A stretch of DNA of 64,000 bases from Escherichia coli (lineage in GTDB: Bacteria > Pseudomonadota > Gammaproteobacteria > Enterobacterales > Enterobacteriaceae), in NCBI RefSeq assembly GCF_022846255.1, contig NZ_AP025682.1; one strand, written 5' to 3'. Below, piece by piece: positions 1-36,181 of this stretch. How positions within the stretch are numbered: position 1 is the stretch's first letter; each line of letters begins with the position of its first letter. A program made the position numbers and the translations under genes. The notes below the pieces were generated by a model. That model ran no database searches. It was not told where the DNA came from and worked only from the letters and a program-made list of their open reading frames with translations.

Positions 1-943
1 CCACCGCTTTCACCACCTGGTTCATCTCCGGCGGAAAGCCAGAAAGCAAAATTCCGGTGTTCATTCCCTGAATAATCAGCGCCCCCACCACCGAAAGCAG
101 CAGGTTAAAGCGCCCGCCCATCAGCGATCCGCCGCCAATCACCACTGCAAGAATGGCGTCCAGCTCCAGCCATAAGCCGGCGTTGTTGGCATCGGCACCG
201 CGAATATCCGCCGCCACGATAATGCCCGCAATCGCCGCACATAGCCCGCTCAACACGTAGGTGAGCATGACGATGATCCGCGTGTTTACCCCGGCATTTT
301 TTGCCGCCCGAATGTTGATACCAACGGCTTCGATAAACATCCCCAGTGCCGTTTTGCGGGTCAACAGCCAGAACAGGAGAAGCGTCAGCACCGCAATAAT
401 GACTGGCGTTGGCAGGAACAACAGCGATCCGCTGCCAAACCAGGAGAGATCCGGTGAGTTAAATGTGACGATCTGTCCGGAGGTGATCAGTTGCGCCACG
501 CCGCGCCCGGCGACCATCAGGATCAGGGTGGCGACAAACGGCTGAATTTTGAGGATCGCTACCAGTATGCCGTTCCACAATCCCGCCAGGATGCCAGTGC
601 CGAGGGCGCTTAACAAAACAATTGGCAGGCTGAATCCCGCGACCGTCATCGCAGCCGTTGTGGCTCCGGCGATAGCCATCACCGCCCCTACGGAGAGATC
701 AATCCCACCGGTGGCGATAACCAGCGTCATGCCAATCGCCAGTAGCGCAACGGGGGCCGCACGGTTAAAAATGTCGATAGGGCTACCGAACAAACGCCCA
801 TCCTGAAGCACCACCTGCCAGAAATGCGGGGCCACCAGGCTATCAACCAGCAGCACCAGCAACAGTGCCGCCAGCTGCGGCATTCCTGTTGGCCAGCGAA
901 AACGCCTTTTCGGCGGCGTAGTGTCCGGGAGAGATTGAGGCAT
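1..943 (-). CDS. ytfT: ABC transporter permease YtfT, partial (3' end lies beyond the window start); start codon at 941-943
   Basis: Reverse-strand reading frame open from position 1 to an ATG at 943, 14 bp downstream of ytfR stop; position in ytfQRT operon; hydrophobic translation on + strand antisense ORFs consistent with membrane protein. Confidence 0.8.
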   Translation of the reverse strand, partial: MPQSLPDTTPPKRRFRWPTGMPQLAALLLVLLVDSLVAPHFWQVVLQDGRLFGSPIDIFNRAAPVALLAIGMTLVIATGGIDLSVGAVMAIAGATTAAMTVAGFSLPIVLLSALGTGILAGLWNGILVAILKIQPFVATLILMVAGRGVAQLITSGQIVTFNSPDLSWFGSGSLLFLPTPVIIAVLTLLLFWLLTRKTALGMFIEAVGINIRAAKNAGVNTRIIVMLTYVLSGLCAAIAGIIVAADIRGADANNAGLWLELDAILAVVIGGGSLMGGRFNLLLSVVGALIIQGMNTGILLSGFPPEMNQVVKAV

Positions 944-956
944 CACACTGTTCTCC

Positions 957-2459: not shown

Positions 2460-2489
2460 GGTTTCCCCCGGTGTAAAGCGTGCTCCCAG

Positions 2490-2573
2490 TAGGCATGATA
2501 AGACGCGGTAAGCGTCGCATCAGGCTTCAGCGCACAACCGCCGGATGCGGCGCGAGCGCCTTATCCGGCCTAC
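2490..2573. repeat. BIME/REP element (two inverted REP units) in ytfR-ytfQ intergenic region
   Basis: Sequence aggcatgataagacgcggtaagcgtcgcatcaggc followed by gccggatgcggcgcgagcgccttatccggcctac, the characteristic E. coli REP palindromic unit. Confidence 0.8.
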
Positions 2574-2598
2574 GAATCGGCATCAGGCATAGCAACCC

Positions 2599-3555
2599 TC
2601 AATACCCCATATTTTTCTTCTTCTCTAACTCTTCTTTTGCGGTATCAGGCAGATAAAGGGTGGATTTGGTCAGCGTTAGCTTTTCAGGCATGGTGCCGTC
2701 TTTTTTGTATTTCTCCAGCGCGTCGAAAGCAGGACCTGCCATGTTCGGCGTCAGTTCAACGCTGGCGTTCGCTTCGCCATCAATCATCGCTTTGTAGATG
2801 TCCGGCACGCCGTCGATAGAGCCTGTCAGGATATCTTTGCCCGGTTTCAGGCCCGCTTCTTTAATTGCCTGAATTGCACCAATCACCATGTCATCGTTAT
2901 GGGCGTAAACCATGCAGATGTTTTTGCCGTTGTTTTCCGCTTTGATAAAGCTCTCCATCACTTCTTTGCCTTTGCTGCGGGTGAAGTCACCTGACTGCGA
3001 GCGGATAATTTTGATATTTGGCGCATTCTTTATGGCTTCGGCAAAGCCTTTCTTACGGTCAATGGCGACGCTGGCCCCAACGGTGCCCTGTAACTCAACC
3101 ACGTTACATGGTTTGCCGTTAACCTCTTTCACCAGCCAGTCACCGATCAACTTACCTTCGAGGATGTTGTCGGCAGTAACGGTGGTCATATAGAGAGATT
3201 TGTCTTTCACATCGATGGAACGGTCAAGCAAGAAGACCGGGATTTCGGCATCTTTCGCCTCTTTTAATACCGGTTCCCAACCCGTCGCCACCACCGGAGC
3301 GATAAAGATCGCATCCACCCCTTGTGCGACGAAGGAACGTACCGCTTTAATCTGGTTTTCCTGCTTTTGCTGACCATCGGCAATTTTCAGTGTGATACCG
3401 CGTTTTTCGGCTTCACTTTTCGCCACATTGGTTTCTGCGGCGCGCCAGCCGGATTCCGATCCGACCTGCGAAAATCCTACGGTTAATGGAGCGGCCAACG
3501 CCATAGACGACATGGCTGCCGAGACTGCAGAGACTACAAGTAAGCGTTTCCACAT
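2599..3555 (-). CDS. ytfQ: Galactofuranose-binding periplasmic protein YtfQ
   Basis: 318-aa ORF with N-terminal signal peptide (MWKRLLVVSAVSAAMSSMALA) and periplasmic sugar-binding protein fold signature; upstream of ytfR. Confidence 0.93.
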   Translation of the reverse strand: MWKRLLVVSAVSAAMSSMALAAPLTVGFSQVGSESGWRAAETNVAKSEAEKRGITLKIADGQQKQENQIKAVRSFVAQGVDAIFIAPVVATGWEPVLKEAKDAEIPVFLLDRSIDVKDKSLYMTTVTADNILEGKLIGDWLVKEVNGKPCNVVELQGTVGASVAIDRKKGFAEAIKNAPNIKIIRSQSGDFTRSKGKEVMESFIKAENNGKNICMVYAHNDDMVIGAIQAIKEAGLKPGKDILTGSIDGVPDIYKAMIDGEANASVELTPNMAGPAFDALEKYKKDGTMPEKLTLTKSTLYLPDTAKEELEKKKNMGY

Positions 3556-3864
3556 AGGGTTGTCCTCGTCGGGGTAATTATTATTGGTGAAAAGATGTTC
3601 GCGAAAAAACTATAGACAATTCGTTATGTAACGGATTGCGTTACATCACACTTCAAAAAAGTAAATAAAACGTTAATCACAAGTTTGTAATCGCTTTCAT
3701 CTCACTATGAAAAATGCGGCTACGGTTATGGATTTTCCTGCTCTGTATACCGTCTTAAAACTGGCGAAAAAGGAAAATGAAGACGAAAACAAGCGAAGAC
3801 ATTCGGCGCGAGTTGGCTATAATACTCGGCACTTGTTTGCCACATATTTTTAAAGGAAACAGAC

Positions 3865-4395
3865 ATGAGCTTACTCAACGTCCCTGCGGGTAAAGATCTG
3901 CCGGAAGACATCTACGTTGTTATTGAGATCCCGGCTAACGCAGATCCGATCAAATACGAAATCGACAAAGAGAGCGGCGCACTGTTCGTTGACCGCTTCA
4001 TGTCCACCGCGATGTTCTATCCGTGCAACTACGGTTACATCAACCACACTCTGTCTCTGGACGGTGACCCGGTTGACGTACTGGTCCCGACTCCGTACCC
4101 GCTGCAGCCGGGTTCTGTGATCCGCTGCCGTCCGGTTGGCGTACTGAAAATGACCGACGAAGCCGGTGAAGATGCGAAACTGATTGCTGTTCCGCACACC
4201 AAGCTGAGCAAAGAATACGATCACATTAAAGACGTTAACGATCTGCCAGAGCTGCTGAAAGCGCAAATCGCTCACTTCTTCGAGCACTACAAAGACCTCG
4301 AAAAAGGCAAGTGGGTTAAAGTTGAAGGTTGGGAAAACGCAGAAGCCGCTAAAGCTGAAATCGTTGCTTCCTTCGAGCGCGCCAAGAATAAATAA
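3865..4395 (+). CDS. ppa: Inorganic pyrophosphatase
   Basis: 176-aa ORF, translation matches E. coli Ppa ([38 protein letters not shown]...). Confidence 0.97.
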
Positions 4396-4749
4396 GTTCT
4401 TCTGGCGTAATAACCCTGAACGCCGGGCTTCGGTTAGTAGGGGTTTTTTTATGCCCGCAATTTATAAACTCTCTACTCCACTATTATTATTTTCAGCAGT
4501 TTAAAGGCTTGAACGGTAAGAACAAGCTAAACTCGACCACCATTTTGCTGTTCATAGCCACTTGCTGGAAGTTAGCCGGCCTCACTCATACTCACCGTTC
4601 AAAGCGTGTCCCCGTTTTACCCCTGTACATTTGTTAACGCCAGCAGAGTTTTACATGCGTTAACGGATATGGAAAGCGGCTCGGAAGGAAAAGCAAAAGG
4701 CGAGGAAGTTACAAAAAAGAATACGCGTCGTCTCGCAAAAAAATAACGC

Positions 4750-4761
4750 CACCCGCAGGTG
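4750..4761. repeat. IS4 target-site duplication (left copy), cacccgcaggtg
   Basis: 12-bp direct repeat identical to 6188-6199, immediately flanking the IS4 terminal inverted repeats. Confidence 0.85.
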
Positions 4762-6187
4762 TAATGCCGATCAGTTAAGGATCAGTTGACCGATCCAGTG
4801 GCTGTGTAAGAATCCGGAAACGCTCACTTGTTTCCGGATTTTTTTATGCACATTGGACAGGCTCTTGATCTGGTATCCCGTTACGATTCTCTGCGTAACC
4901 CACTGACTTCTCTGGGGGATTACCTCGACCCCGAACTCATCTCTCGTTGCCTTGCCGAATCAGGTACTGTAACGCTACGCAAGCGCCGTCTTCCCCTCGA
5001 AATGATGGTCTGGTGTATTGTTGGCATGGCGCTTGAGCGTAAAGAACCTCTTCACCAGATTGTGAATCGCCTGGACATCATGCTGCCGGGCAATCGCCCC
5101 TTCGTTGCCCCCAGTGCCGTTATTCAGGCCCGCCAGCGCCTGGGAAGTGAGGCTGTCCGCCGCGTGTTCACGAAAACAGCGCAGCTCTGGCATAACGCCA
5201 CGCCGCATCCGCACTGGTGCGGCCTGACCCTGCTGGCCATCGATGGTGTGTTCTGGCGCACACCGGATACACCAGAGAACGATGCAGCCTTCCCCCGCCA
5301 GACACATGCCGGGAACCCGGCGCTCTACCCGCAGGTCAAAATGGTCTGCCAGATGGAACTGACCAGCCATCTGCTGACGGCTGCAGCCTTCGGCACGATG
5401 AAGAACAGCGAAAATGAGCTTGCTGAGCAACTTATAGAACAAACCGGCGATAACACTCTGACGTTAATGGATAAAGGTTATTACTCACTGGGACTGTTAA
5501 ATGCCTGGAGCCTGGCGGGAGAACACCGCCACTGGATGATACCTCTCAGAAAGGGAGCGCAATATGAAGAGATCAGAAAACTGGGTAAAGGCGATCATCT
5601 GGTGAAGCTGAAAACCAGCCCGCAGGCACGAAAAAAGTGGCCGGGACTGGGAAATGAAGTGACAGCCCGCCTGCTGACCGTGACGCGCAAAGGAAAAGTC
5701 TGCCATCTGCTGACGTCGATGACGGACGCCATGCGCTTCCCCGGAGGAGAAATGGCGGATCTGTACAGTCATCGCTGGGAAATCGAACTGGGATACAGGG
5801 AGATAAAACAGACGATGCAACTGAGCAGGCTGACGCTGAGAAGTAAAAAACCGGAGCTTGTGGAGCAAGAGCTGTGGGGTGTCTTACTGGCTTATAATCT
5901 GGTGAGATATCAGATGATTAAAATGGCGGAACATCTGAAAGGTTACTGGCCGAATCAACTGAGTTTCTCAGAATCATGTGGAATGGTGATGAGAATGCTG
6001 ATGACATTGCAGGGCGCTTCACCGGGACGTATACCGGAGCTGATGCGCGATCTTGCAAGTATGGGACAACTTGTGAAATTACCGACAAGAAGGGAAAGGG
6101 CCTTCCCGAGAGTGGTAAAGGAGAGGCCCTGGAAATACCCCACAGCCCCGAAAAAGAGCCAGTCAGTTGCTTAACTGACTGGCATTA
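4762..6187 (+). mobile_element. IS4 insertion sequence, complete (1426 bp) with 18-bp imperfect terminal inverted repeats
   Basis: Left end taatgccgatcagttaag, right end cttaactgactggcatta (reverse complement taatgccagtcagttaag); length 1426 bp equals canonical IS4; encloses the IS4 transposase ORF; flanked by 12-bp direct repeats. Confidence 0.92.
4846..6174 (+). CDS. insG: IS4 transposase (InsG), DDE family
   Basis: Translation from ATG at 4846 ([28 protein letters not shown]...) matches IS4 transposase; ORF track start at 4828 is a TTG extension. Confidence 0.92.
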
Positions 6188-6199
6188 CACCCGCAGGTG
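6188..6199. repeat. IS4 target-site duplication (right copy), cacccgcaggtg
   Basis: Identical to 4750-4761. Confidence 0.85.
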
Positions 6200-6213
6200 G
6201 CGTGCTTTTATTA

Positions 6214-6555
6214 TTACTTATCCCTGTCTAACCAGTCGCCGCTTTCAATTAGCTTTAATCCATCGACGGGTCGTTGATAAACGTACATCCATGCACTCCC
6301 GTACGGCGTCTGAATCAACTGGCGCGCGTATTCACCGCCCCTGGTGCGCAAGGCATCAAGTTCGGCCAGCGTGGCGTTGTCAATACGATAAACTTCACCG
6401 TGTACTGTTCCGTTCCCCGGAACTGCGCCTGGATAGTGGCCCAGGCTATACAACTGGTAGTTATCGATACTGAAATCGCCCAGTAACTGGGCATTGGTCA
6501 TCCAGTGACTGTTGCCTTGTTTGTGGCGTAAACTGCCGTAGACAAATATTCGCAT
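6214..6555 (-). CDS. ytfP: Gamma-glutamylcyclotransferase-family protein YtfP
   Basis: 113-aa ORF (MRIFVYGSLRHKQGNSHWM...) with YGSL motif typical of GGCT/AIG2 fold; downstream of tamB. Confidence 0.93.
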   Translation of the reverse strand: MRIFVYGSLRHKQGNSHWMTNAQLLGDFSIDNYQLYSLGHYPGAVPGNGTVHGEVYRIDNATLAELDALRTRGGEYARQLIQTPYGSAWMYVYQRPVDGLKLIESGDWLDRDK

Positions 6556-6557
6556 TG

Positions 6558-12229
<5,672 letters not shown>

Positions 12230-24294: not shown

Positions 24295-24511
24295 CGTATT
24301 TCCTTTCTTAGGGTATAAAGTAGCGGGCAGCATATCAGCCACACTTCTTTGGGTAAAACTTTGTCGCGGGAATGATGACAAATCCCGGGGAAAAAGAAAC
24401 AATAGCAATATCCCGTATGAATATAATAAAGGCGGGTTTACCACGGACATCATAGCGTTAGCTTATTCATAGGCTATGATTGAGGAACAAGACGCGGAGC
24501 AGGAGGAAACC

Positions 24512-25150
24512 ATGCCCGGGCGCTTTGAACTAAAACCAACCCTGGAGAAAGTCTGGCACGCGCCGGACAATTTTCGCTTCATGGACCCGCTGCCGCCGAT
24601 GCATCGTCGGGGGATCATTATTGCCGCCATTGTATTGGTGGTCGGATTTCTGCTTCCATCTGATGATACGCCCAACGCGCCGGTGGTGACGCGTGAAGCG
24701 CAGTTAGATATTCAGTCGCAATCACAACCACCGACAGAAGAACAGCTGCGGGCGCAATTAGTCACGCCACAAAATGATCCTGATCAGGTGGCTCCGGTCG
24801 CTCCAGAACCAATACAGGAAGGCCAACCAGAAGAGCAGCCGCAAACCACCCATACGCAACCATTCCAGCCAGATAGCGGAATTGATAATCAATGGCGCTC
24901 CTATCGTGTCGAACCCGGTAAAACGATGGCGCAGCTGTTCCGCGACCACGGACTGCCCGCTACCGATGTCTATGCCATGGCGCAGGTAGAAGGCGCGGAT
25001 AAGCCACTGAGTAATTTGCAAAACGGGCAGATGGTGAAAATCCGCCAGAACGCCAGCGGCGTGGTGACGGGCTTAACCATTGATACGGGGAATAATCAAC
25101 AGGTCCTGTTTACCCGCCAGCCGGATGGCAGTTTTATTCGCGCGCGGTAG
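24512..25150 (+). CDS. ytfB: Cell-division-associated OapA-domain protein YtfB
   Basis: 212-aa product from ATG at 24512 ([23 protein letters not shown]...) preceded by AGGAGG; single TM, Pro/Gln-rich linker, C-terminal OapA region. Confidence 0.9.
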
Positions 25151-25781
25151 ATGAAGGGTCAACCAAAAGCCAGCTAAGGATCGTCTCTTTGATGACCTTA
25201 CGTCTGGCTTCCAGTGCCTGCGGTGAAACCATACTGATGTGATAAACCAGACCAAGCGTATGCTGGTTGATCAAATAATATCCCCCAAGCGCAGCAATAT
25301 TAATATTCACCTGCAATGGGTCGATATCTGGCTTAAAAATATTGTTTTTCTTCCCTTCATCCAATAAGGATTCCATTAACTGCAAGTGCGCATGGTTAAT
25401 TTCTAAAAGACGCTGTGACTTTGCATAATGCACACCCTTACTTTGATTTTCACTATGCACAATTTTTAAAAACCAGGGATTAGAAATATAATAATCCCAT
25501 GTAAAATCGATTATTTTCTCAATGGCTTTCTGTGGCGGAAGATCTGAGAAATCAAGGGCCTTTTCTTTTTGTCGAATATCGTTCCAGGTATATTCCAGTA
25601 CTTCGATAAATAAATTTTCTTTATTACCAAAGTGGTGATAAACCGTCTGTTTACTGCACCCCGCGGCCTTGACGATATTATCGACTCTGGCCCCTTCGTA
25701 ACCATATTCGGCAAATTCATTAACCGCGCATAACAGCAGCTTTTCTTTCAGGCTCTGTACGTTGCTGGTATCAAGATACAT
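25134..25781 (-). CDS. ytfA: TetR/AcrR-family transcriptional regulator (intact YtfA), divergent from the downstream operon
   Basis: 215-aa product from ATG at 25781 ([58 protein letters not shown]...) with TetR N-terminal HTH signature; 3' end overlaps ytfB 3' end. Confidence 0.85.
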
Positions 25782-25903
25782 AACGCTTCCCCACGACCTC
25801 TTCGTGGTGACTATCATAACCTGATTTGATTTCAGCTTCAGAAAAAAGGGCAAAAACTTGTACTTTCATCAGGTTATCAAATGTCCTGTGATCGCCATCG
25901 CAT

Positions 25904-25925
25904 ATCAACCAACTAGATGGTTGAT
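25904..25925. promoter_or_regulatory. Candidate TetR-type operator: 8-bp inverted repeat with 6-bp spacer (atcaacca-actaga-tggttgat) in ytfA/operon divergent intergenic region
   Basis: Perfect 8/8 inverted repeat located 69 bp upstream of the SDR gene start and within the ytfA upstream region. Confidence 0.5.
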
Positions 25926-25993
25926 CTTTTTATCCTCCAGTCGCAAGCTAATCATCACTAAGGAAACAAAATTCAAAAAAAGAGAGCTATTGT

Positions 25994-26785
25994 ATGAAAT
26001 CCACTCGTCCTGTTGCCGTGATTACCGGAGCCGCACGTGGTATTGGAAAGGGCTGTGCGCTGGAGCTTGCGCGTGGCGGATTTAATCTGCTGATTAATGA
26101 TCGTCCGGATGCGGATAGCGTAGAAAAATTACATGCCACACAACAAGAATGTCTGGCGGAAGGCGTGGAAGTGATTTGCTTCCCTGCTGATGTGGGCGAT
26201 CTCTCCCTGCATGAAGAGATGCTCGACGCAGCGCAAAACCAGTGGGGACGTCTGGACTGCCTGCTCAACAACGCAGGCATTTCAGTGAAAAAACGCGGTG
26301 ACCTTCTCGACCTCGAACCAGACAGCTTCGACCAAAATATTGCCATTAACACCCGCGCACCGTTCTTCCTTGCTCAGGCATTCAGTAAGCGCTTACTGGC
26401 ACAGCCGAAACCGGAAGCAGAACTGCCGCACCGCTCGATTATTTTCGTCAGTTCCATCAACGCCATCATGCTGGCGATGAATCGCGGCGAATATACCATT
26501 GCCAAAACTGCCGTCTCTGCCGCTGCTCGTCTGTTTGCTGCTCGCCTTTGTAATGAACAAATTGGCGTATATGAAGTGCGTCCTGGTCTCATCAAAACCG
26601 ATATGACTATTCCGGCAACGGCCTATTACGACGAACTGATTGCCAAAGGTCTGGTGCCGTGGGGACGTTGGGGTTATCCGGCTGATATTGCTTCCACTGT
26701 CCGCGCGATGGCGGAAGGTAAACTGATTTACACCTGTGGTCAGGCGGTCGCCATCGACGGCGGCTTAAGTATGCCGCGCTTCTGA
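25994..26785 (+). CDS. Short-chain dehydrogenase/reductase (SDR) family oxidoreductase
   Basis: 263-aa ORF with TGAARGIGKG cofactor-binding motif and YTIAK (YxxxK) catalytic motif. Confidence 0.85.
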   Translation: MKSTRPVAVITGAARGIGKGCALELARGGFNLLINDRPDADSVEKLHATQQECLAEGVEVICFPADVGDLSLHEEMLDAAQNQWGRLDCLLNNAGISVKKRGDLLDLEPDSFDQNIAINTRAPFFLAQAFSKRLLAQPKPEAELPHRSIIFVSSINAIMLAMNRGEYTIAKTAVSAAARLFAARLCNEQIGVYEVRPGLIKTDMTIPATAYYDELIAKGLVPWGRWGYPADIASTVRAMAEGKLIYTCGQAVAIDGGLSMPRF

Positions 26786-26794
26786 GGCTGAATC

Positions 26795-27637
26795 ATGAGA
26801 GATCTGTTACAACGCCCGGATTTATTCAGTATCAATACCGCGACACTGGGCTATAAAACGCCGCTGCCCGCCATTATTGATGCCTGCGCCGCACGCGGTA
26901 TTGGCGCCATTGCCCCCTGGCGCAGGGAGTTGCAGGGTGAAGATCTCCAGCAAATCGCCCGCCAGCTTGCTGCCAGTAACATAAACGTTTCCGGTTTGTG
27001 CCGTAGCACCTACTACACCGCACCGACGCTGGCGGAGCGCAAACTGGTGATTGACGATAACCGCCGGGCGCTGGACGACGCCGCTGTACTGAACGCCGCC
27101 TGTTATATGCAGGTGGTTGGCGGTCTGCCAATGGGAACAAAAGATCTGTACGAAGCACGGGAACAAGTGAAACAAGGGATTCGCCAGTTGCTGCCACATT
27201 CGAAAGAGGTCGGCGTGCCAATTGCACTGGAGCCACTGCACCCGATGACTGCTGCCGATCGTTCTTGTCTGTGCACGTTACGTCAGGCGCTGGACTGGTG
27301 TGATGAACTCGATCCCGATGGCGAATTTGGCCTCGGCGTGGCGGTAGATGTCTACCATGTCTGGTGGGACCCGGATCTCGCCAGTCAGATCCTGCGTGCC
27401 GGAAAACGCATCCTCGCGTTTCATGTTTCCGACTGGTTAGTGCCGACCACCGATCTGGTCAATGACCGTGGAATGCCGGGAGATGGTGTCATCAATATTC
27501 CGTCAATTCGTCGGCTGGTTGAAAACGCCGGATTTAATGGCGCTATTGAACTGGAAATATTCTCACCGTACTGGTGGCAGAAAGATATTAACAGCACGCT
27601 GGATATTAGCGTCGATCGCATCGCACATTATTGTTAA
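26795..27637 (+). CDS. Sugar phosphate isomerase/epimerase (xylose-isomerase-like TIM barrel) family protein
   Basis: 280-aa ORF starting 9 bp after SDR stop, GAGG RBS; family assignment by sequence resemblance to AP-endonuclease-2/TIM-barrel isomerases, moderate certainty. Confidence 0.75.
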   Translation: MRDLLQRPDLFSINTATLGYKTPLPAIIDACAARGIGAIAPWRRELQGEDLQQIARQLAASNINVSGLCRSTYYTAPTLAERKLVIDDNRRALDDAAVLNAACYMQVVGGLPMGTKDLYEAREQVKQGIRQLLPHSKEVGVPIALEPLHPMTAADRSCLCTLRQALDWCDELDPDGEFGLGVAVDVYHVWWDPDLASQILRAGKRILAFHVSDWLVPTTDLVNDRGMPGDGVINIPSIRRLVENAGFNGAIELEIFSPYWWQKDINSTLDISVDRIAHYC

Positions 27638-27646
27638 GGAATAATC

Positions 27647-28423
27647 ATGAGTGACCAACCCGTTCTGTTCAGCAGAGCGGCGGCTTCTTGCCGCCTGACA
27701 TTGAACCGTGAAGATAAATGTCATGCTATTAATGAAGAAATGATCGAATCTCTCGACCATTATTTAAATGAAATTGAAAATGACACGGCATTACGCTTAG
27801 TCGAATTAACGGCAACCGGCGATAAATTCTTTTGTGCGGGCGGCGATATTAAATCGTGGTCGGCCTATTCGCCATTAGATATGGGCAGAAAATGGATTAA
27901 ACGCGGTAATGACGTTTTTAATCGCCTGCGCAACTTACCCCAATTAACCGTTGCGAATCTCAACGGTCATACCATCGGTGGCGGTATTGAACTTGCCTTG
28001 TGCTGCGATATTCGTATCGCTCGCCCCGGCGCGAAATTCTCTAACCCGGAAGTGATGCTCGGCATGGTGCCAGGCTGGATGGGCATTGAGCGAGTGCTTA
28101 ATCAGGTTGGTCCTGTGGTCGGTCGCCAGATGCTGATGCTGGGTAAACGCCTGACGGCGCAGGAAGCTCAGACAGCGAATTTAATTGATGAAGTGGTAGA
28201 AAAAGAACAGGTGGAAAGCTGGATGGCGAACCAGTTAGCGCAGCTGGAAAAATGTGGTCCGGTGGCACTGGCACATATTAAGCAACTGATTCTGGCGCTG
28301 GAAAATAAACACGCCGATTACTCCCACCAGTTACTGGCTGGATTAATGTCCGCCACTCAGGATTGCCAACAGGCGACGCACGCATTTGCCGAAAAAGCCG
28401 GCGTGAGCTTCCACAATCAATAA
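27647..28423 (+). CDS. Enoyl-CoA hydratase/isomerase (crotonase-fold) family protein
   Basis: 258-aa ORF with crotonase motifs (FCAGGDIK; NGHTIGGGIELALCCDIRIA); AAGGA RBS. Confidence 0.85.
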   Translation: MSDQPVLFSRAAASCRLTLNREDKCHAINEEMIESLDHYLNEIENDTALRLVELTATGDKFFCAGGDIKSWSAYSPLDMGRKWIKRGNDVFNRLRNLPQLTVANLNGHTIGGGIELALCCDIRIARPGAKFSNPEVMLGMVPGWMGIERVLNQVGPVVGRQMLMLGKRLTAQEAQTANLIDEVVEKEQVESWMANQLAQLEKCGPVALAHIKQLILALENKHADYSHQLLAGLMSATQDCQQATHAFAEKAGVSFHNQ

Positions 28424-28432
28424 GGAAATTGT

Positions 28433-29974
28433 ATGCGTAAGTTATCAACCGCCGAGACACTGGCGGCGCAAATTCAGGACGGCGCAACCATTGCCATTAG
28501 CGGCAACGGCGGCGGTATGGTGGAAGCTGACCATATTCTGGCCGCCATTGAAGCGCGCTTTCTGCAAACCGGACACCCGCGCGATCTGACATTAATCCAC
28601 TCGCTGGGTATTGGCGATCGCGACAGCAAAGGCACTAACCGTTTTGCTCACGCCGAAATGCTCAAACGCATTATTGCCGGACATTTTACCTGGTCGCCCA
28701 AGATGCAGGAACTGGTGAAAAGCAATGCTATTGAAGCCTACTGTTTCCCTGGTGGCGTAATTCAGGCACTGCTGCGGGAGATCGGTGCCGGACGTCCGGG
28801 GCTTTTTACCCACGTTGGGCTGGGATCGTTTGTTGATCCACGCAATGGTGGCGGTAAGTCGAATGAATGCACTACCGACGACCTGGTAGAACTGATTGAA
28901 ATCGACGGTGAGACCAAACTTCGTTATCGCCCTTTCAAAGTGGACTACGCGATTTTGCGCGGCACCTATGCCGATCCGCGTGGCAACGTCAGCCTCGAAG
29001 AAGAGGCGATTGATATGGATAGCTATTCGATGGCGCTGGCAGCACACAACAGCGGCGGCAAAGTGTTCGTACAGGTCCGCGATGTGCTGGAAGCAGGTAC
29101 CATTGAACCACGTCGGGTCAAACTACCAGGAATTCTGGTCGATGGCATCGTTGAGCACCGCGAACAACCGCAAACCTATCTTGGTGGTTACGACCTGACG
29201 ATCAGCGGTCAACATCGCCGTCTAAGTTCTAACGACGCTATTGAACTGGTTAGTCATCCGGTGCGTCGCCTGATTGCCCGTCGGGCAGCGCGGGAACTGG
29301 TGGCAGGCGCTTCAACCAACTTTGGCTTTGGTATTCCCGGCGGTATTCCTGGGGTTGCACTGCGCGAAGGCGTGCCTTATCAAAGTTTGTGGCTGAGTGT
29401 AGAACAGGGTGTACATAACGGCATGATGCTGGATGATGCTCTGTTCGGCTGCGCCCGTAACGCCGATGCCATTATTCCATCACTCGATCAATTCGAATTC
29501 TACAGTGGCGGCGGTATCGATATCACCTTCCTCGGCATGGGAGAGATGGATCGGTACGGTAACGTCAACGTATCCCATCTCAATGGCAATCTCATTGGCC
29601 CCGGCGGCTTCCTCGAAATTGCGCAAAACGCCCGTAAAGTGGTGTTCTGCGGTACGTTTGACGCCAAAGGCAGCAAGATTGATGTAACGCCTGATGGCCT
29701 GCATATCGCCCAGTCAGGTCAAATCCCCAAACTGGTTACCCAGGTGGAAAAAATTACTTTTAGCGCCGCATACGCACAGCAAAGCAGTCAGGAAGTGCTG
29801 TATATCACCGAACGTGCGGTATTCCAGTTAACGGCAGAAGGCGTTGAATTAATTGAGATCGCCCCTGGCGTAGAGATTGACCGCGACATTCTGCCGTATA
29901 TGGCCTTCCGTCCGATTATCAGGCACCCACGCCTGATGGAAAGTAGCCTGTTTACGCCAATGGAGGATGCATGA
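28433..29974 (+). CDS. Family I CoA-transferase, fused alpha/beta type (YdiF-like acyl-CoA:acetate CoA-transferase)
   Basis: 513-aa ORF with glycine-rich N-terminus (ATIAISGNGGGMVEADHIL), resembles E. coli YdiF-type short-chain acyl-CoA transferases; AAGGA RBS. Confidence 0.8.
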   Translation: MRKLSTAETLAAQIQDGATIAISGNGGGMVEADHILAAIEARFLQTGHPRDLTLIHSLGIGDRDSKGTNRFAHAEMLKRIIAGHFTWSPKMQELVKSNAIEAYCFPGGVIQALLREIGAGRPGLFTHVGLGSFVDPRNGGGKSNECTTDDLVELIEIDGETKLRYRPFKVDYAILRGTYADPRGNVSLEEEAIDMDSYSMALAAHNSGGKVFVQVRDVLEAGTIEPRRVKLPGILVDGIVEHREQPQTYLGGYDLTISGQHRRLSSNDAIELVSHPVRRLIARRAARELVAGASTNFGFGIPGGIPGVALREGVPYQSLWLSVEQGVHNGMMLDDALFGCARNADAIIPSLDQFEFYSGGGIDITFLGMGEMDRYGNVNVSHLNGNLIGPGGFLEIAQNARKVVFCGTFDAKGSKIDVTPDGLHIAQSGQIPKLVTQVEKITFSAAYAQQSSQEVLYITERAVFQLTAEGVELIEIAPGVEIDRDILPYMAFRPIIRHPRLMESSLFTPMEDA

Positions 29975-32043
29975 GTCAGCTTGATGAGGCCATCCTTGAT
30001 GCACTGACACACGTTACTTTCCCAAAGGGTTTTGCACAGGCAGAACCCGCATGGGTTGTCACGGTAGACGGTGTTGATTACCCACTCTGGAAAACAGATG
30101 CCCTGGTAGTCGGCAGTGGTGCAGCCGGGCTACGTGCAGCTGTGGAACTTAAACGCCGCCAGCAAAATGTGTTAATCGCCACCGCCGGGTTATATATGGG
30201 GACATCGGCATGTTCTGGCTCTGATAAACAAACACTGTTTACCGCCGCTACCGCGGGCAACGGCGACAACTTCGCCAAACTGGCAGAGGCACTGGCGAGC
30301 GGTGGGGCGATGGATCACGACACCGCTTATGTTGAAGCGGTAGGTTCTCTGCACACTCTTGGCGGGTTGCAATATCTTGGTCTGGAATTACCGGAAGATC
30401 GCTATGGCGCGATTCTTCGTTATCAAACCGACCATGACGAAGCCGGGCGTGCAACCTCGTGTGGGCCGCGTACCTCAAGGTTAATGGTGAAAGTGCTGCT
30501 GGAAGAAGTACAGCGTCTTGCTATCCCAATGTTGGCCAGTGCAACAGTGATTAAACTGCTGCATCAGCGTGACGAAAACGGTGAAGACCGTGTGGCGGGG
30601 GCAATCCTCGCGACCGGTCATCGCGCCCATAACCCATGGGGGCTGGCAATTGTGACTGCGCCCAATGTGGTACTGGCAACAGGCGGGCCTGGCGAGCTTT
30701 ATCGCGACAGTGTGTATCCACACAAATGTTTCGGCTCGCTGGGGCTGGCGCTGGAGGAAGGTCTGACGTTAACGAATCTGACTGAAAGCCAGTTTGGTAT
30801 AGGCACACCGCGCAGCACGTTTCCGTGGAATTTGTCCGGCACCTATGTACAGGTGATCCCATATATCTATTCCGTGGATGCCGGGGGCAACGAGTATAAC
30901 TTCCTCGCGGATTACTATCGCACCACCCAGGAGCTGGCTTCAAACATTTTCCGTAAAGGCTATCAGTGGCCGTTCCACGCCACGCGGGTAATGGATTTTG
31001 GCTCCAGCTTGTTAGATATGGCAGTAGCGCAAGAGCAGCAACATGGTCGTCAGGTATTTATGGATTTCAATCGTAATCCAGAACCTGTGCCGGGTGACCT
31101 ACCGTTCTCATTAGATCGACTGGACGACGACGTTCGCGCGTATCTGGAAAATAACGACGCTCTGGCACCATCGCCCATCGAACGCCTGCAACAAATGAAT
31201 CCTCTGTCTATCTCGCTGTATAAGATGCACGGTTACGATCTCATCACGCAGCCATTGCAGTTTGCCATGAATAATCAGCACATGAATGGCGGCATTGAAG
31301 TCGATATCTGGGGACAAACATCTCTGCCCGGTTGTTTTGCGGTGGGGGAAGTTGCTGGCACACACGGCGTCACCCGACCTGGCGGCGCGGCGTTGAATGC
31401 CGGGCAGGTTTTTGCTGTTCGTCTGGCGCGCTTTATTGGTTGCACGCAAAAGCGGAATATTGATGGAGATATTGCACAGCTGGCAGCTCCGGCACTGGCT
31501 TCTATAAGAGAGATCATTACTCAGGCGCACGATAACGGGTCCGGGATGCCGTTGTCGGTTGTGAGAGAAAAAATTCAGGCACGAATGTCTGACTATGCGG
31601 GATTTATTTGCCATGCCGATAAAGTCCGACGTGCCACTCGTGATGCCCTGCTATTGAACGAATTTGTCCAACGACATGGATTGGCAATCAAACATGTGGG
31701 TGAAGTTGCCGAGCTGTTTATGTGGCGGCATATGGCGCTGACTTCTGCCGCGGTATTAACACAATTAACGCATTATATTGATGCTGGTGGTGGTAGCCGT
31801 GGGGCGCGTATGGTTATTGATCCACAAGGCAAATGCCTACCACAAACTCGTCGCGGCGCAAAAGAAGAATGGCGTTTTCGCTCTGAACTCGCTGAAGACA
31901 AAAATCACAAATTAACAATTCAATATTCGCAAGGTTCTTTTATTACCGAAGTAAAGTCTTTACGTATGCAACCGTGTATTAACGGTATTTACTTTGAAAA
32001 AAACTGGCCAGACTTTTTAAAGGGAGACATTTACACACAATAA
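29971..32043 (+). CDS. FAD-dependent oxidoreductase, fumarate reductase/succinate dehydrogenase/L-aspartate oxidase flavoprotein superfamily, with long C-terminal extension
   Basis: 690-aa ORF; dinucleotide-binding motif (DALVVGSGAAGLRAAVEL) and C-terminal FAD-binding signature (CFAVGEVAGTHGVTRPGGAALNAGQVF); start ATG overlaps upstream stop (ATGA); GGAGG RBS. Confidence 0.8.
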   Translation: MSQLDEAILDALTHVTFPKGFAQAEPAWVVTVDGVDYPLWKTDALVVGSGAAGLRAAVELKRRQQNVLIATAGLYMGTSACSGSDKQTLFTAATAGNGDNFAKLAEALASGGAMDHDTAYVEAVGSLHTLGGLQYLGLELPEDRYGAILRYQTDHDEAGRATSCGPRTSRLMVKVLLEEVQRLAIPMLASATVIKLLHQRDENGEDRVAGAILATGHRAHNPWGLAIVTAPNVVLATGGPGELYRDSVYPHKCFGSLGLALEEGLTLTNLTESQFGIGTPRSTFPWNLSGTYVQVIPYIYSVDAGGNEYNFLADYYRTTQELASNIFRKGYQWPFHATRVMDFGSSLLDMAVAQEQQHGRQVFMDFNRNPEPVPGDLPFSLDRLDDDVRAYLENNDALAPSPIERLQQMNPLSISLYKMHGYDLITQPLQFAMNNQHMNGGIEVDIWGQTSLPGCFAVGEVAGTHGVTRPGGAALNAGQVFAVRLARFIGCTQKRNIDGDIAQLAAPALASIREIITQAHDNGSGMPLSVVREKIQARMSDYAGFICHADKVRRATRDALLLNEFVQRHGLAIKHVGEVAELFMWRHMALTSAAVLTQLTHYIDAGGGSRGARMVIDPQGKCLPQTRRGAKEEWRFRSELAEDKNHKLTIQYSQGSFITEVKSLRMQPCINGIYFEKNWPDFLKGDIYTQ

Positions 32044-32135
32044 TTTTCAATATTTCCTCTGTACCTGATTTTTATTGCCTATTACATGGAAATACCAACA
32101 ACCAGGGTTTATTAATATAATTAAAAGGTTTAAAA

Positions 32136-33413
32136 ATGAATAAAATAAAGAATTATCGATGGCATATGATTGCCCTCGTATGCTTTATCACTGTAATCAA
32201 TTATCTGGACAGAACGGCGTTAGGTATTGCGGCTCCAACGATTATGGAGACAACCGGAATAACCAAAGAACAATATTCATGGATTGTCAGTGCATTCCAG
32301 TTGGCCTATACATTGGGGCAACCGATAATGGGCTTCTTTATTGATACCGTGGGTCTGAAGTTAAGTTTTGCGATATGTGCCGCAATCTGGGGCCTGGCGA
32401 CAATGGGGCATGCCTTGACAGGAACATGGTCAGGTCTGGCATTTATGCGCGCCCTGATGGGTTTCAGCGAAGCATCGGCAATTCCTGCGGGTGTAAAAAC
32501 CGCATCAACATGGTTCCCGGCAAAAGAGCGTGGCGTGGCGACAGGTGTATTCAATATGGGTACCTCACTCGGCGCGATGCTTGCTCCACCGTTGATTGCC
32601 TGGTGCATTATGTTTCATAGCTGGCAATTTGCGTTTATTGTCTCAGGTAGCCTTGCTTTACTCGCGGCTTTATTTTGGTTCTTTTGTTATAAAGATCCAA
32701 AAGATGCTAAACGCCTTTCTGATGAAGAGCGCCACTATATTGAGTCTGGGCAAGAACAGCATCTTAAAACAGATAAGAAAGAAAAAACGTCAATCAAGCA
32801 TATCCTCAGCCAACGTAATTTCTGGGGGATTGGCATCGCGCGTTTTCTCGCTGACCCGGCATGGGGAACCATTAACTTCTGGGTACCGATTTTCTTCGTC
32901 GAAACGCTGCATTTTAGCCTGAAAGAAATTGCCATGTTCGTCTGGCTGCCTTTCCTGCTGGGCGATCTCGGCTGTTTAGCCAGTGGTTTTGTCGCGAAGT
33001 TCTTCCACGATCGCGGCGTGAGTTTAATTAACTCACGAAGAATTACCTTCACTATTGCAGCCGTCATTATGATGACGATTGGTCTGGTGAGTATTGTCGA
33101 AAATCCCTACATCGCCGTATTACTGATTAGCATTGGCGCATTCTCGCATCAATGTCTTTCTACTGTTGCAGCAACTCTGGGCGGTGACCTATTCAAAAAA
33201 GACGAAGTAGCTACCGCTGTGGGTATGGCAGGAGCCTGTGCATGGAGCGGTCAGTTGATTTTCAACCTGTTTATCGGGGCATTCGTTCACATTATTGGCT
33301 TCGCGCCGTTCTTTATTGCCCTGGCTTTCTTTGACATTATTGGCGCCATTGCGCTGTGGATGCTTATCAAAGTTAAAGACGAAGAACCACAAGTACAGTT
33401 AGCGACAAGCTAA
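32136..33413 (+). CDS. MFS transporter, anion:cation symporter (ACS) family (hexuronate/aldonate-type)
   Basis: 425-aa 12-TM ORF with MFS signature (YLDRTALGIAAP; GxLxDRxG-like loop), resembles ExuT/DgoT-type organic anion permeases. Confidence 0.85.
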   Translation: MNKIKNYRWHMIALVCFITVINYLDRTALGIAAPTIMETTGITKEQYSWIVSAFQLAYTLGQPIMGFFIDTVGLKLSFAICAAIWGLATMGHALTGTWSGLAFMRALMGFSEASAIPAGVKTASTWFPAKERGVATGVFNMGTSLGAMLAPPLIAWCIMFHSWQFAFIVSGSLALLAALFWFFCYKDPKDAKRLSDEERHYIESGQEQHLKTDKKEKTSIKHILSQRNFWGIGIARFLADPAWGTINFWVPIFFVETLHFSLKEIAMFVWLPFLLGDLGCLASGFVAKFFHDRGVSLINSRRITFTIAAVIMMTIGLVSIVENPYIAVLLISIGAFSHQCLSTVAATLGGDLFKKDEVATAVGMAGACAWSGQLIFNLFIGAFVHIIGFAPFFIALAFFDIIGAIALWMLIKVKDEEPQVQLATS

Positions 33414-33422
33414 TTATTTTAC

Positions 33423-33464
33423 ATAGAAACGCTATAATTTAGCTTTGTAGCGTTTCTATTTTTC
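33423..33464 (+). terminator. Rho-independent terminator after MFS transporter gene (possibly bidirectional)
   Basis: Perfect 11-bp stem atagaaacgct ... agcgtttctat followed by tttttct. Confidence 0.6.
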
Positions 33465-33555
33465 TCATAAATTAAACGTCTCTTCCAAAACGTTCAGTAT
33501 CTACTGGCATTGCTTCGCAAATTTATGATTTAGCGAATATATCTAAATAACTATT

Positions 33556-34824
33556 CTAAATTGCCCCCCTGAACGCCTCTGCCATTAACTCTTGCTCACG
33601 ACCAGGTAATCGAAGACGCTCGGCAATGATTCGCCACTGACTGACAATCCCTCTAAAATTAGCAATAATGTCATCTGCTTCTGTCAAACCAAGTCGAAAA
33701 TAATCCACAACTTCTCGAGCTAATTCCAAATCAAGTGCATTATCATTTTCTGTAATATTGAGTTTTAGACCGTCAGACCTGGCAACAGGATTCAAATCAT
33801 ATGCCTCAGAAAGCCGCCAACCTTTTCCCGGTATCAAGATATATCCATGATTACGTAAATGGTCATCGGTATTAGAAACAAGAATATTAAAAACAATCCT
33901 GGACCAGAGTTCCTTAAGGTCAGTATTAGTCTGCGCTCCATGTCTGATAAGAACATCTGCTAATTCCAGATAACTCACACCTGTAGAGGCATCTTCACCA
34001 TCCTGATGCCTGGTTAGTGTCATAGCCGAAGCAAAATGCAGACGCCTTCCCGCATTAGTGCGGTCAAAACGACGAACCATAAAACAATGGTAATTGCTGG
34101 CAAATTTATGCGCCTGAGCAGGTGCAACATTCAGTCCACAGCCAACAGCAAGTGCATTAACGACCATTTCCCATCCACCAACATCATACTCATCTTTTAC
34201 ACTGGGAAATTTAGCGATGTAGAGATACCCAGCTTCATCAACAACACTGGCTTTCGGACGTGTCCCCCCTAATGATCCCCCCGGAGCGATTAGCATTCTT
34301 AACCATTTTTGCCCCATTAGCTCTTTATTATCAGGATCTTCTTCAATTGCCCGGCTAGCCCTTTCCAGACTCGCTATTTCGGTAAATGGTGGGGCTGCAA
34401 CATCAATGCGATTATCAAGAAACTCTCCAGCGTCTTCACGTTTGTATCGAAGAGCCCCAACCCGATAAAGATCATGAACACCTAGTAGATAATCAGACTC
34501 ATAAAGGTGGGAGTCTTTATCACATAACCCGTCTCGAATATCCCTCTCAAAACGACGCTTCATTAGCATACGCCCCCAACGATCCGGGCAGGAATCACTA
34601 AATGCACCAAATTTATCCTTTGGAGGAATTGGGTACTGTGCTCCCTCATACAACATTATTTCAGGATCTAACTGAATGAAATTAAGTGAAGGATCTGCAA
34701 GCGCCTTTTTATCGTACTCAAACTCAAATATCTCACGCGTCCGAGTGCGGCGACTGTGTAAATAACCAATCCGCTCCGGACCATCCAGGCCTTCCCAATC
34801 CGCATACACTCCGATTAATGCCAT
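33556..34824 (-). CDS. HipA-family serine/threonine kinase (type II toxin-antitoxin toxin candidate)
   Basis: 422-aa ORF; HipA N-terminal motif (FSDSCPDRWGRMLMKRR resembles HipA FDNLLPDSPIVRDRIVKRY), glycine-rich loop (IAPGGSLGGTRPKASVV), catalytic motif (LVSNTDDHLRNHGYIL); AAGGAAA RBS; starts 2 nt after upstream HTH gene stop. Confidence 0.85.
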   Translation of the reverse strand: MALIGVYADWEGLDGPERIGYLHSRRTRTREIFEFEYDKKALADPSLNFIQLDPEIMLYEGAQYPIPPKDKFGAFSDSCPDRWGRMLMKRRFERDIRDGLCDKDSHLYESDYLLGVHDLYRVGALRYKREDAGEFLDNRIDVAAPPFTEIASLERASRAIEEDPDNKELMGQKWLRMLIAPGGSLGGTRPKASVVDEAGYLYIAKFPSVKDEYDVGGWEMVVNALAVGCGLNVAPAQAHKFASNYHCFMVRRFDRTNAGRRLHFASAMTLTRHQDGEDASTGVSYLELADVLIRHGAQTNTDLKELWSRIVFNILVSNTDDHLRNHGYILIPGKGWRLSEAYDLNPVARSDGLKLNITENDNALDLELAREVVDYFRLGLTEADDIIANFRGIVSQWRIIAERLRLPGREQELMAEAFRGAI

Positions 34825-34826
34825 AA

Positions 34827-35318
34827 TTAATTTCCTTTTAACGGTTTTTTTATCGGTTTTAATAGTGCTGCAAGAGAGGTTGATGTTTCTCCTGTAATAG
34901 ATGGCGTTGAGCCTTCTGCCAGTGCTGTTAAATCCGTGGTGAGTAAACCTTCTTTCTCATACCTCGTTTGAAAAGGGTCTGTCTGAATACCTTCTTCATT
35001 TTTACCTGATGAACGAGAAAGCCCTCTTTTTTTAATCAAACGGGAATCCTGGAGCTGACGCCCTAAGTCGTCTTCAGCTGCAAGCTTATTTAAATCCGTT
35101 TCCAGGCCCAAAACCTGCATCACAGACAAATATGCCCCTATCGTGACCCCTGCACTTCCTGACTCCAGAGAGCGCAATGTTATTGGCGACATCCCAGCAC
35201 GTTCAGCAACTTGCTTTGCGGTAAGCCTGCGTCGTAAACGAGCAAGTTTCAGCCGCTCACCAAATTCACTAAGCATCTGATTCGTATAAGGGAGTAACGG
35301 TGCTGTTTTTTTACCCAT
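34827..35318 (-). CDS. XRE-family HTH protein, HipB-like antitoxin candidate with ~90-aa Ser/Thr-rich C-terminal extension
   Basis: 163-aa ORF; HTH_XRE region ([32 protein letters not shown]); immediately upstream of and co-oriented with the HipA-like gene; no clear SD at the first ATG, alternative start at Met15 (35276) possible. Confidence 0.75.
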
Positions 35319-35338
35319 AGTGATAATATTTTATCTTT

Positions 35339-35359
35339 TTATGGCTATGATAGCCATAA
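35339..35359. promoter_or_regulatory. Candidate operator: perfect 10-1-10 palindrome ttatggctat-g-atagccataa upstream of HipB-like gene
   Basis: Perfect inverted repeat 21-41 bp upstream of the HTH gene start codon in an AT-rich promoter region. Confidence 0.55.
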
Positions 35360-35664
35360 TATTAGCATTTATTGGATTGAACGCACCTGCAAAGCGTTCA
35401 AGATTACGAAAGTGATGATATTTTATCCTTTTATATATAAAAACAATAAAATAACAGCGCATTCATATATAACATATTGTTTTTATTATCATACAAGGGA
35501 GACGATCGCTGTATTGATGCTTTTGTCGTGTTTTACGCGTAAAAAACATGACACGAACTACCAGCGGCGAGGCTGGGGGCCAGGTATGGGTACTGCGAAC
35601 TTTTTATAAAAGGAATAACAAGAGATTTATGGAGGGAACGTCTGTTTCTGCGGTTTTTATCACT

Positions 35665-35697
35665 TAAAAGCAAAACGCCGACCACTGGTCGGCGTTT
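35665..35697 (-). terminator. Rho-independent terminator of rpsF-priB-rpsR-rplI operon
   Basis: Stem aacgccgacca/tggtcggcgtt followed on the minus strand by ttttgctttt, 23 bp downstream of rplI stop. Confidence 0.75.
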
Positions 35698-35719
35698 TTA
35701 CGTCTCGTTGAATAACGAA

Positions 35720-36181
<462 letters not shown>

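Follow-up and report, generated by a model that had tools for sequence, protein, structure and literature searches.

A hipBA-like gene pair beside rplI in Escherichia coli and the predicted docking of its long antitoxin tail on the kinase

Results

Gene organization of the hipBA-like locus

We analyzed a stretch of 64,000 nucleotides from the E. coli contig NZ_AP025682.1, hereafter called the window, for a gene pair resembling the hipBA toxin-antitoxin operon. The two open reading frames (ORFs) span positions 33556-35318 of the minus strand in the ORF list and are co-oriented. The upstream gene encodes a helix-turn-helix (HTH) protein of 163 aa, designated HipB here, and the downstream gene a HipA-like kinase of 422 aa. 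At the junction, the stop codon of hipB and the start codon of hipA are arranged as TAA(34829-34827)-TT-ATG(34824-34822), with a spacing of 2 nt. The last hipB codons contain an AAGGA Shine-Dalgarno-like element (34837-34833), and because this element is located 9-13 nt 5' of the kinase ATG, translational coupling of hipA to hipB is plausible. The start codon of hipB was assigned to the ATG at 35318. The N-terminus encoded from this position is kept across genera, and therefore, the frame that carries the long C-terminal tail is the translated one. The original prediction for this locus, which was made from the sequence alone, had described two co-oriented minus-strand genes of 163 and 422 aa separated by 2 nt, and this organization was confirmed by the ORFs and the junction. 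Its reservation that the real start of the HTH gene might be far downstream was not borne out.

The kinase is a full-length HipA-type protein remote from K-12 HipA

The kinase matched Pfam HipA_C (PF07804) with an E-value of 5.4e-45 at residues 184-397, which cover positions 2-213 of the 213 positions in the model. The sequence motifs were taken from an alignment of 28 family members, and the equivalent residues of HipA from a pairwise alignment with the K-12 protein. The P-loop, A180-PGGSLGGTRPKA-192, contains the Gly-rich sequence SLGGxRPK, which is conserved in the family together with S184. This serine occupies the place of HipA S150, and it is a candidate autophosphorylation site. D320 and N325 are located at the places of HipA D309 and N314, and are the predicted catalytic Asp and Asn, respectively. 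N318 and N325 are invariant in the family, and conservation reaches 90% or more at D320, D321 and H322. K205 in IAKFPS, the sequence DSxPDRWGR (residues 77-85) and the sequence RFDR (residues 252-255) are also intact, and the kinase copy in the window is intact at every conserved position. The Pfam matches and the alignments thus bear out the assignment, made in the original prediction, of an XRE-type HTH protein and a HipA-family kinase with intact catalytic motifs.

The pairwise alignment of the kinase with K-12 HipA gave 27% identity, over 132 aa only. The Pfam Couple_hipA model matched the N-terminus of the kinase with an E-value of only 0.25, and the sequence alone gives no support for an N-terminal subdomain. 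However, a structure model of the kinase predicted by AlphaFold2 was aligned by Foldseek with E. coli HipA (3dnt/3tpt) with a template-modelling (TM) score of 0.68-0.73. Because this alignment with full-length HipA extends over about 455 columns, the N-terminal subdomain is considered to be present. The best kinase match in a sequence search of the PDB was HipT (7ab4; 2.5e-8), and HipA was not among the matches at E ≤ 0.01. In the comparison with NCBIfam, neither protein reached the cut-off of an equivalog model. The best model for the kinase was HipH/YjjJ (NF007297), with 37.1 bits against a cut-off of 401, and the HipA equivalog model was not reported for it; the small protein scored 16.5 bits against the cut-off of 79 for the HipB equivalog model PRK09726. 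As judged from these comparisons, the kinase is a member of a HipA clade remote from K-12 HipA, HipT and HipH, in agreement with the proposal in the original prediction of a less-characterized HipA family. The gene organization likewise fits an uncharacterized hipBA clade, and not HipT, HipH or HipE. The kinase and HipB motifs were absent from the portion of Table S1 of Gerdes 2021 (PMC8262856) that was covered, and a literature search found no experimental paper on this kinase clade.

The antitoxin consists of a conserved core, a variable linker and a C-terminal motif

Pfam detected HTH_31 (6.6e-11) and HTH_3 (2e-6) in residues 18-75 of HipB. The mean pairwise identities of 70 non-redundant homologues of the long form divided the protein into regions of very different conservation (Table 1). 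Within the core, the identity was 74% for residues 1-17, 85% for residues 18-75 and 68% for residues 76-95, and the predicted local distance difference test (pLDDT) values of the AlphaFold2 model were 75-89. The helices following the HTH (72-82 and 88-91) carry the sequence LGLExDLxxxAxxDxLGRxLQD. The linker varies in length from about 45 to 80 aa among the homologues. It is followed by the motif T-[ST]-[SA]-x-x-L-[AVS]-x-L-[LI]-K-P (residues 142-155), with a mean identity of 50% as compared with 12% in the linker. L149, L152, L153 and P155 in this motif are invariant, and T145, A150 and K154 are at least 90% conserved, in the alignment of HipB homologues. The basic tail at the end of the protein (residues 156-163) showed 21% identity. 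A crystal structure, PDB 9u9g ("antitoxin HipB from Pseudomonas fluorescens 2P24"), aligned to residues 1-97 with an E-value of 1.4e-30. Only 77-85 of its 153 residues were modelled, in agreement with a disordered tail. No paper on 9u9g or on HipBA of P. fluorescens 2P24 was found in the literature search.

The original prediction gave 88 aa for canonical E. coli HipB, which is correct (267-nt coding sequence), and described a low-complexity tail of about 90 residues in the present protein. A long tail is indeed present, but it is shorter than proposed, at about 68 residues, since the folded part extends to about residue 95. It consists of a disordered linker and a conserved motif in the last 17 or so residues, so that the tail is not uniformly of low complexity.

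Two main alleles of hipB were observed in E. coli. Their codons 1-97 are identical, and codons 128-163 differ at two synonymous sites. Codons 98-127 (34938-35027), on the other hand, contain 18 nt and 9 aa differences, with a dN of 0.21 and a dS of 0.33. Similar clusters of differences are present in hipA at 33676-33876 and 34740-34777. The linker block of hipB thus looks recombinant with the motif preserved, a pattern of mosaic recombination and not of uniform divergence.

A similar small amphipathic motif was observed at the ends of many short HipB proteins of clade I, e.g., ...IDIDAIVDAARKPR, ...LDLDALMEDY and ...ELRDLASLIESYERGDE, in the covered portion of Table S1 in PMC8262856. The last of these endings resembles ...ADALAGLIESP of the beta-proteobacterial long forms. 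These entries of the table suggest that many HipB proteins may have a docking peptide at the C-terminus.

Predicted docking of the C-terminal motif on the kinase

AlphaFold2 predictions were performed on two fusion constructs, with paired alignments built from loci having both genes. Model 1 was HipB-(GGGGS)6-HipA, with 29 alignment rows. Model 2 was HipA-(GGGGS)6-HipB(124-163), with 47 rows, in which the HTH domain was removed and the chain order reversed. Model 1 was obtained with a mean pLDDT of 76.8 and a predicted TM score (pTM) of 0.72. HipB residues 10-87 were confident and residues 88-141 and the artificial linker were below 50, while the values rose to 75-85 at residues 142-158. Model 2 showed a mean pLDDT of 87 and a pTM of 0.86. 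The linker was again below 50, and the motif reached 93 at residues 142-151 and 77 at residues 152-161. The secondary structure of the motif was identical in both models: E144-T145 formed a beta-bridge and residues 146-150 a helix. A peptide of 17 residues flanked by disorder seldom reaches such confidence unless it is packed on a folded surface. Since only the kinase is available as a partner in model 2, the motif at residues 142-158 is predicted to dock on it. The suggestion in the original prediction that the tail docks on the kinase is thereby supported in silico by both constructs. Among the isolated bridge residues shared by the two models, A62-Q63 of the conserved EGxQYP loop have no obvious pairing partner in the kinase itself, and the docking contact is likely to be at these residues in the N-terminal subdomain. 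A flexible HipB C-terminus that is sequestered in a hydrophobic pocket of HipA within the complex is known from Shewanella oneidensis (PMC4150777).

Operator-like sites upstream of hipB

Three 14-bp operator-like sites are located upstream of hipB (Table 1). The proximal palindrome matches GMTAAWATWTTAKC without mismatch, and the region 35411-35434 is a direct repeat of 35319-35342 (24 nt, 92% identical). Six matches to the palindrome were found in the whole window. Three of them, including the only ones with zero or one mismatch, lie upstream of hipB within a distance of 105 nt. In 22 loci of the long form from other genera, including Serratia, Erwinia, Burkholderia and Pseudomonas, the proximal palindrome ends 1-4 nt 5' of the ATG, and no Shine-Dalgarno element was found before hipB in any of these loci. 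Because the palindromes abut the ATG without a Shine-Dalgarno element in all 22, the arrangement suggests autorepression by HipB and a leaderless or nearly leaderless hipB mRNA.

Distribution of the clade and lineage-specific length of the antitoxin

The kinase clade comprises 6733 clusters at 50% identity (E ≤ 1e-3), or 704 at E ≤ 1e-30. At least 593 species genomes of gamma- and beta-proteobacteria, Bacteroidota, Ignavibacteria and Spirochaetes carry it, and it was also found on 112 plasmid records, 48 of them conjugative. A co-oriented ORF of at least 40 aa precedes the kinase gene in 78 of 80 related loci, and all of the 76 upstream ORFs that were translated have the HipB core in common. 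In total, 2362 HipB homologues were found. The long antitoxins (144-227 aa) occur in beta- and gamma-proteobacteria, where their partner kinases share about 58% identity or more with the query. Antitoxins of the short form (about 96-136 aa) pair with kinases of about 50% identity in Bacteroidota, Ignavibacteria and some gamma-proteobacteria. These short forms keep the core including the post-HTH helices, and end with the basic sequence ...LQDAxLxxKERAPKK, without the linker or the motif. Because the long and short forms follow the relatedness of the kinases, the long antitoxin is, on this sequence comparison, a lineage-specific elaboration typical of the beta/gamma-proteobacterial half of the clade, not an oddity of one locus. 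The antitoxin is thus atypically long, as originally stated, relative to K-12 HipB but not within this half of the clade. A comparison of the kinases paired with long and short antitoxins gave 24 specificity positions; they were scattered, without enrichment near the suspected docking loop, and were not used further. BPSS0390, which was tried as a validated HipBA of B. pseudomallei, turned out to be HicA.

Distribution and repeated loss of the kinase within E. coli

The module is present in about 1044 of 5426 complete E. coli genomes, always on the chromosome beside rplI. The other 4382 share only a 34-nt stretch of the rplI terminator with the query. This distribution agrees with the statement in the original prediction that the module is not at this locus in K-12. 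Two independent frameshifts of the kinase gene were found among the carriers. The first is a -1 deletion of G34320, which changes E168-L169 to E168-stop, and the exact allele was detected in 545 genomes. Its carriers include strains 81009, H105 and Z247, which we take to be sequence type (ST) 131, and RefSeq flags the gene as "frameshifted" in Ecol_244. The second is a +1 insertion in the G6 run of the P-loop (34257-34269, codons 186-188; T+C6 changed to C8 on the plus strand), and was exact in 119 genomes including CFT073, 536, ABU 83972, Nissle 1917 and ATCC 25922. This slippage-prone run is within the catalytic P-loop, and from its sequence it could be an on/off site for the toxin. Altogether, the kinase is frameshifted in at least 664 of the 1044 carriers, and about 36% are intact at both frameshift sites checked. 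A full hipB ORF of 163 aa was present in the examined representatives of both frameshift lineages. Two independent frameshifts in the kinase, fixed in large lineages, with an intact hipB are the asymmetry expected if loss of the antitoxin is lethal and loss of the toxin is tolerated. Lineages that repeatedly lose the toxin and keep the antitoxin fit the pattern of a functional, costly toxin; the decay of a dispensable module would fit as well.

Frameshift alleles of hipB encoding 129 aa (GenBank RS218) and 117 aa (Logan assemblies) were considered as natural tail-less antitoxins and rejected. Neither had an exact match in the approximately 1044 RefSeq carriers, and they are therefore rare alleles or errors. 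The "hipAB" of Nissle 1917 was reportedly studied by Xu et al. in 2020. Because the kinase of Nissle at the present locus is frameshifted, that pair is probably canonical hipBA.

Genomic setting

The region showed 99.8% DNA identity to those of E. coli LF82 and NRG857c, both of phylogroup B2. The window is of the same phylogroup and LF82-like. RefSeq labels the LF82 kinase (WP_001173917.1) as "type II toxin-antitoxin system HipA family toxin" and the product of the small gene as "helix-turn-helix domain-containing protein". The TADB-derived lists in a 2024 review give only the canonical hipBA for LF82 and NRG857c, and this locus is omitted. On one side, the module is bordered by the rplI terminator, and on the other by an accessory metabolic island extending to ytfB. 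This island (about 24400-33413; LF82 locus 735-9014) has no annotated integrase or transposase, and its products include a TetR regulator, a 3-ketoacyl-acyl carrier protein reductase, a sugar-phosphate isomerase, an enoyl-coenzyme A (CoA) hydratase, a CoA-transferase, a flavin adenine dinucleotide (FAD) oxidoreductase of 690 aa and a major facilitator superfamily (MFS) transporter. A palindromic hairpin with a 15-bp stem (33423-33459) is present between the convergent genes for the MFS transporter and the HipA-like kinase, and may be a shared bidirectional terminator. An Rfam scan of 33300-35800 gave no match above the gathering score.

Table 1. Coordinates of the genes and sequence features of the hipBA-like locus in the window
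Feature	Position	Strand	Remarks
hipA-like Ser/Thr kinase gene	33556-34824	-	422 aa, intact; ORF, Pfam HipA_C, Foldseek HipA fold
YDLNP, Y342-346, with Mg-binding D343	33787-33801	-	D343 and N345 invariant; aligns with HipA D332
Catalytic loop NTDDHLRNHG, N318-G327	33844-33873	-	Aligns to HipA TDGHAKN
P-loop codons A180-A192 (APGGSLGGTRPKA)	34249-34287	-	L185, G186, G187, R189, P190 and K191 invariant
hipB-like antitoxin/repressor gene	34827-35318	-	163 aa; ORF, Pfam HTH_31/HTH_3, alignment with PDB 9u9g
Conserved C-terminal motif of HipB, T142-K158	34845-34895	-	Predicted kinase-docking segment
Disordered hypervariable linker of HipB, residues 96-141	34896-35033	-	12% identity; pLDDT <50 in both models
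Conserved core of HipB, residues 1-95	35034-35318	-	N-terminal helix, HTH (18-75), post-HTH helices
Proximal operator-like 14-bp palindrome (GATAATATTTTATC)	35322-35335		No mismatch to the pattern given in the text; ends 3 nt before the hipB ATG
Second operator-like palindrome	35353-35366		Overlaps a perfect 10+1+10 inverted repeat, 35339-35359
Third operator-like site	35414-35427		Within the 24-nt direct repeat of the proximal site
rplI intrinsic terminator	35672-35698	-	Stem of 12 bp, then a T-run; insulates the module from the ribosomal-protein operon upstream

Discussion

Proposed function and mechanism

The gene pair is probably a chromosomal, autoregulated type II toxin-antitoxin operon of the HipBA class, from a large HipA branch without experimental characterization, and we hold this interpretation with moderate confidence. 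In the mechanism that we propose, a HipB dimer would bind the 14-bp palindromes and repress a bicistronic mRNA that is probably leaderless or nearly so, and translation of hipA would be coupled to that of hipB via the 2-nt junction and the internal Shine-Dalgarno element. The free kinase would phosphorylate an essential target and arrest growth. Its target may be an aminoacyl-tRNA synthetase, as for HipA and HipT. HipB would neutralize the kinase by means of its conserved core and its C-terminal motif (142-158). The disordered tether of about 45 residues would let this motif clip onto the kinase, probably at the N-terminal subdomain near the E60-GAQYP-65 loop. Such docking would raise the affinity through bivalent binding, and it may shield the flexible C-terminus from proteases for as long as the complex lasts, as in HipB of S. 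oneidensis.

Several points weigh against this proposal. We infer toxicity, neutralization, the target and DNA binding alike. A scan with the sigma-70 consensus found no minus-strand promoter upstream of hipB. The kinase is dead in 64% of the E. coli carriers, and the module may therefore contribute little in this species. The Bacteroidota relatives without the tail presumably still neutralize their kinases, so that the tail is not essential to the basic mechanism. As for the docking itself, it is read from AlphaFold2 confidence values and DSSP strings only, with a tail alignment of about 20 sequences, and the site at A62-Q63 was deduced solely from isolated beta-bridge residues of the two models.

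Alternative explanations

The tail could instead be mainly a protease degron, by which Lon or ClpXP degrades HipB and frees the kinase, and the placement by AlphaFold2 would then be incidental. In its chemistry, the hydrophobic LAALL core with the basic residues after it is reminiscent of a degron. Disorder of the linker was seen in both models and in the 9u9g crystal, and the disordered C-terminus of K-12 HipB is reported to be the recognition element for Lon (PMC3376134). However, a pure degron need not keep a specific 12-residue motif across gamma- and beta-proteobacteria, nor is it expected to be placed on the kinase with pLDDT values up to 93 in two constructs. We therefore think it rather unlikely that degradation is the main role of the tail. 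The two functions are also compatible, since docking could mask a degron.

The high frequency of kinase loss raises another explanation, that the module in E. coli is an evolutionary remnant, in which the copy in the window has not yet decayed and HipB is solely a transcription factor. The -1 allele in 545 genomes and the +1 allele in 119, with hipB full-length in the representatives, are consistent with a remnant, as is the omission of the locus from the TADB-based lists for LF82 and NRG857c. On the other side, the window copy is intact at the conserved positions, about 36% of the carriers are intact at both sites checked, and the pair has been kept in several phyla and on conjugative plasmids. 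Recurrent loss of only the toxin is, in itself, typical of active toxin-antitoxin modules. A remnant is thus considered unlikely.

It is less probable still that the motif serves the kinase as a pseudo-substrate or true substrate, with one of T145, S146, T147 and S148 in its active site. T145 is at least 90% conserved, positions 146-147 are nearly always Ser, Thr or Ala, and the motif is predicted to contact the kinase. But the common beta-bridge partner deduced from the models, A62-Q63, is in the N-terminal subdomain and not at the catalytic loop, and some homologues have Ala or Asp in this part of the motif (TTAADL, FADADAL), so that no single hydroxyl is invariant.

An abortive-infection or phage-defence role of the pair, in place of persistence or addiction, seems very doubtful to us. 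The best PADLOC match of the kinase was not significant (E 0.006, 14 bits), HipB gave only generic HTH matches, and the neighbours of the E. coli locus are rplI and a metabolic island and not defence genes. In favour of such a role, the family is mobile and toxin-antitoxin modules are often defence elements (PMC8262856), and it would be compatible with the toxin-antitoxin mechanism.

Implications

HipA kinases are the founding persistence toxins. To our knowledge, targets and neutralization mechanisms are known only for the branches of HipA clade I, HipT and HipH. With the present pair, a very large branch outside these three (593 species or more) is represented in E. coli, in B2 strains of clinical relevance such as LF82 and NRG857c. 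The structural hypothesis that it offers is a docking peptide of 17 residues attached to a disordered tether, for which the tail-less antitoxins of Bacteroidota and the kinase-dead alleles fixed in the ST131-like and the CFT073/Nissle-like lineages are natural controls. If the peptide binds the kinase, it would be a minimal handle on this toxin family, as inhibitor or activator. A more speculative view, which we consider improbable at present, is that the tethered motif serves as a distinct and general control of the kinase across a large HipBA subfamily, i.e., a fly-casting lock of the N-terminal lid or a pseudo-substrate; that release or proteolysis of the motif, and not dissociation of the HTH core, is the switch; and that the loss of the kinase in ST131 and ST73 has phenotypic effects. 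If this is true, the orphan HipB in ST131 and ST73, pandemic lineages of extraintestinal pathogenic E. coli, could lead, for example, to differences in persistence or regulation between B2 lineages.

Comparison with known Hip systems

The proposed operon is similar to HipBA of K-12 (b1508/b1507) in its bicistronic organization with the antitoxin gene first, its XRE-HTH antitoxin/repressor, and palindromic operators, which are predicted here. The kinase shares with K-12 HipA the full-length fold, the N-terminal subdomain, the P-loop serine, the D-x-H-x-x-N loop and the Mg-binding Asp, and the C-terminus of the antitoxin is disordered as in K-12 HipB. On the other hand, HipB is 163 aa long here and 88 aa in K-12, the C-terminal Trp is absent, and the chromosomal locus and the operator sequence are different. 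The operator of K-12 HipB is TATCCN8GGATA. We know of no evidence that K-12 HipB uses a long tether with a docking motif.

Several other systems contain a kinase of the HipA superfamily. HipBST of E. coli O127:H6 and Legionella pneumophila is composed of three genes, in which HipT has no N-terminal subdomain, HipS supplies it in trans, and HipB is not the antitoxin (PMC8262856); the present system has two genes and a kinase that keeps this subdomain. HipH/YjjJ is monocistronic with a fused N-terminal HTH, whereas the HTH here is encoded by a separate gene. In hipEB, the gene for the kinase HipE is first (PMC8262856), whereas here the antitoxin gene is first. HipB from P. fluorescens 2P24 (PDB 9u9g, released 2026-04-01) is a 153-aa long form of the same family, with 62-63% identity by Foldseek. 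It is the sole solved relative, and was solved as the antitoxin alone from another genus.

HipBA of S. oneidensis MR-1 (PDB 4pu3/4pu4; PMC4150777) resembles the present pair in the behavior of the antitoxin, whose C-terminus is disordered when free and ordered in a pocket of HipA, as is predicted here for residues 142-158. Foldseek gave a TM score of 0.62 with 17% identity against the Shewanella structure 4pu5. The Shewanella tail is only about 10 residues long and docks by its last three (G-W-Y), whereas in the tail described here a hypervariable tether of 45-80 residues leads to the amphipathic motif T-S-x-x-L-A-x-L-L-K-P, which is internal, with a basic tail after it. Because sequestration of the C-terminal tail is already seen in Shewanella HipB, the system described here is an extension of that theme and represents neither a new kind of system nor a new principle.

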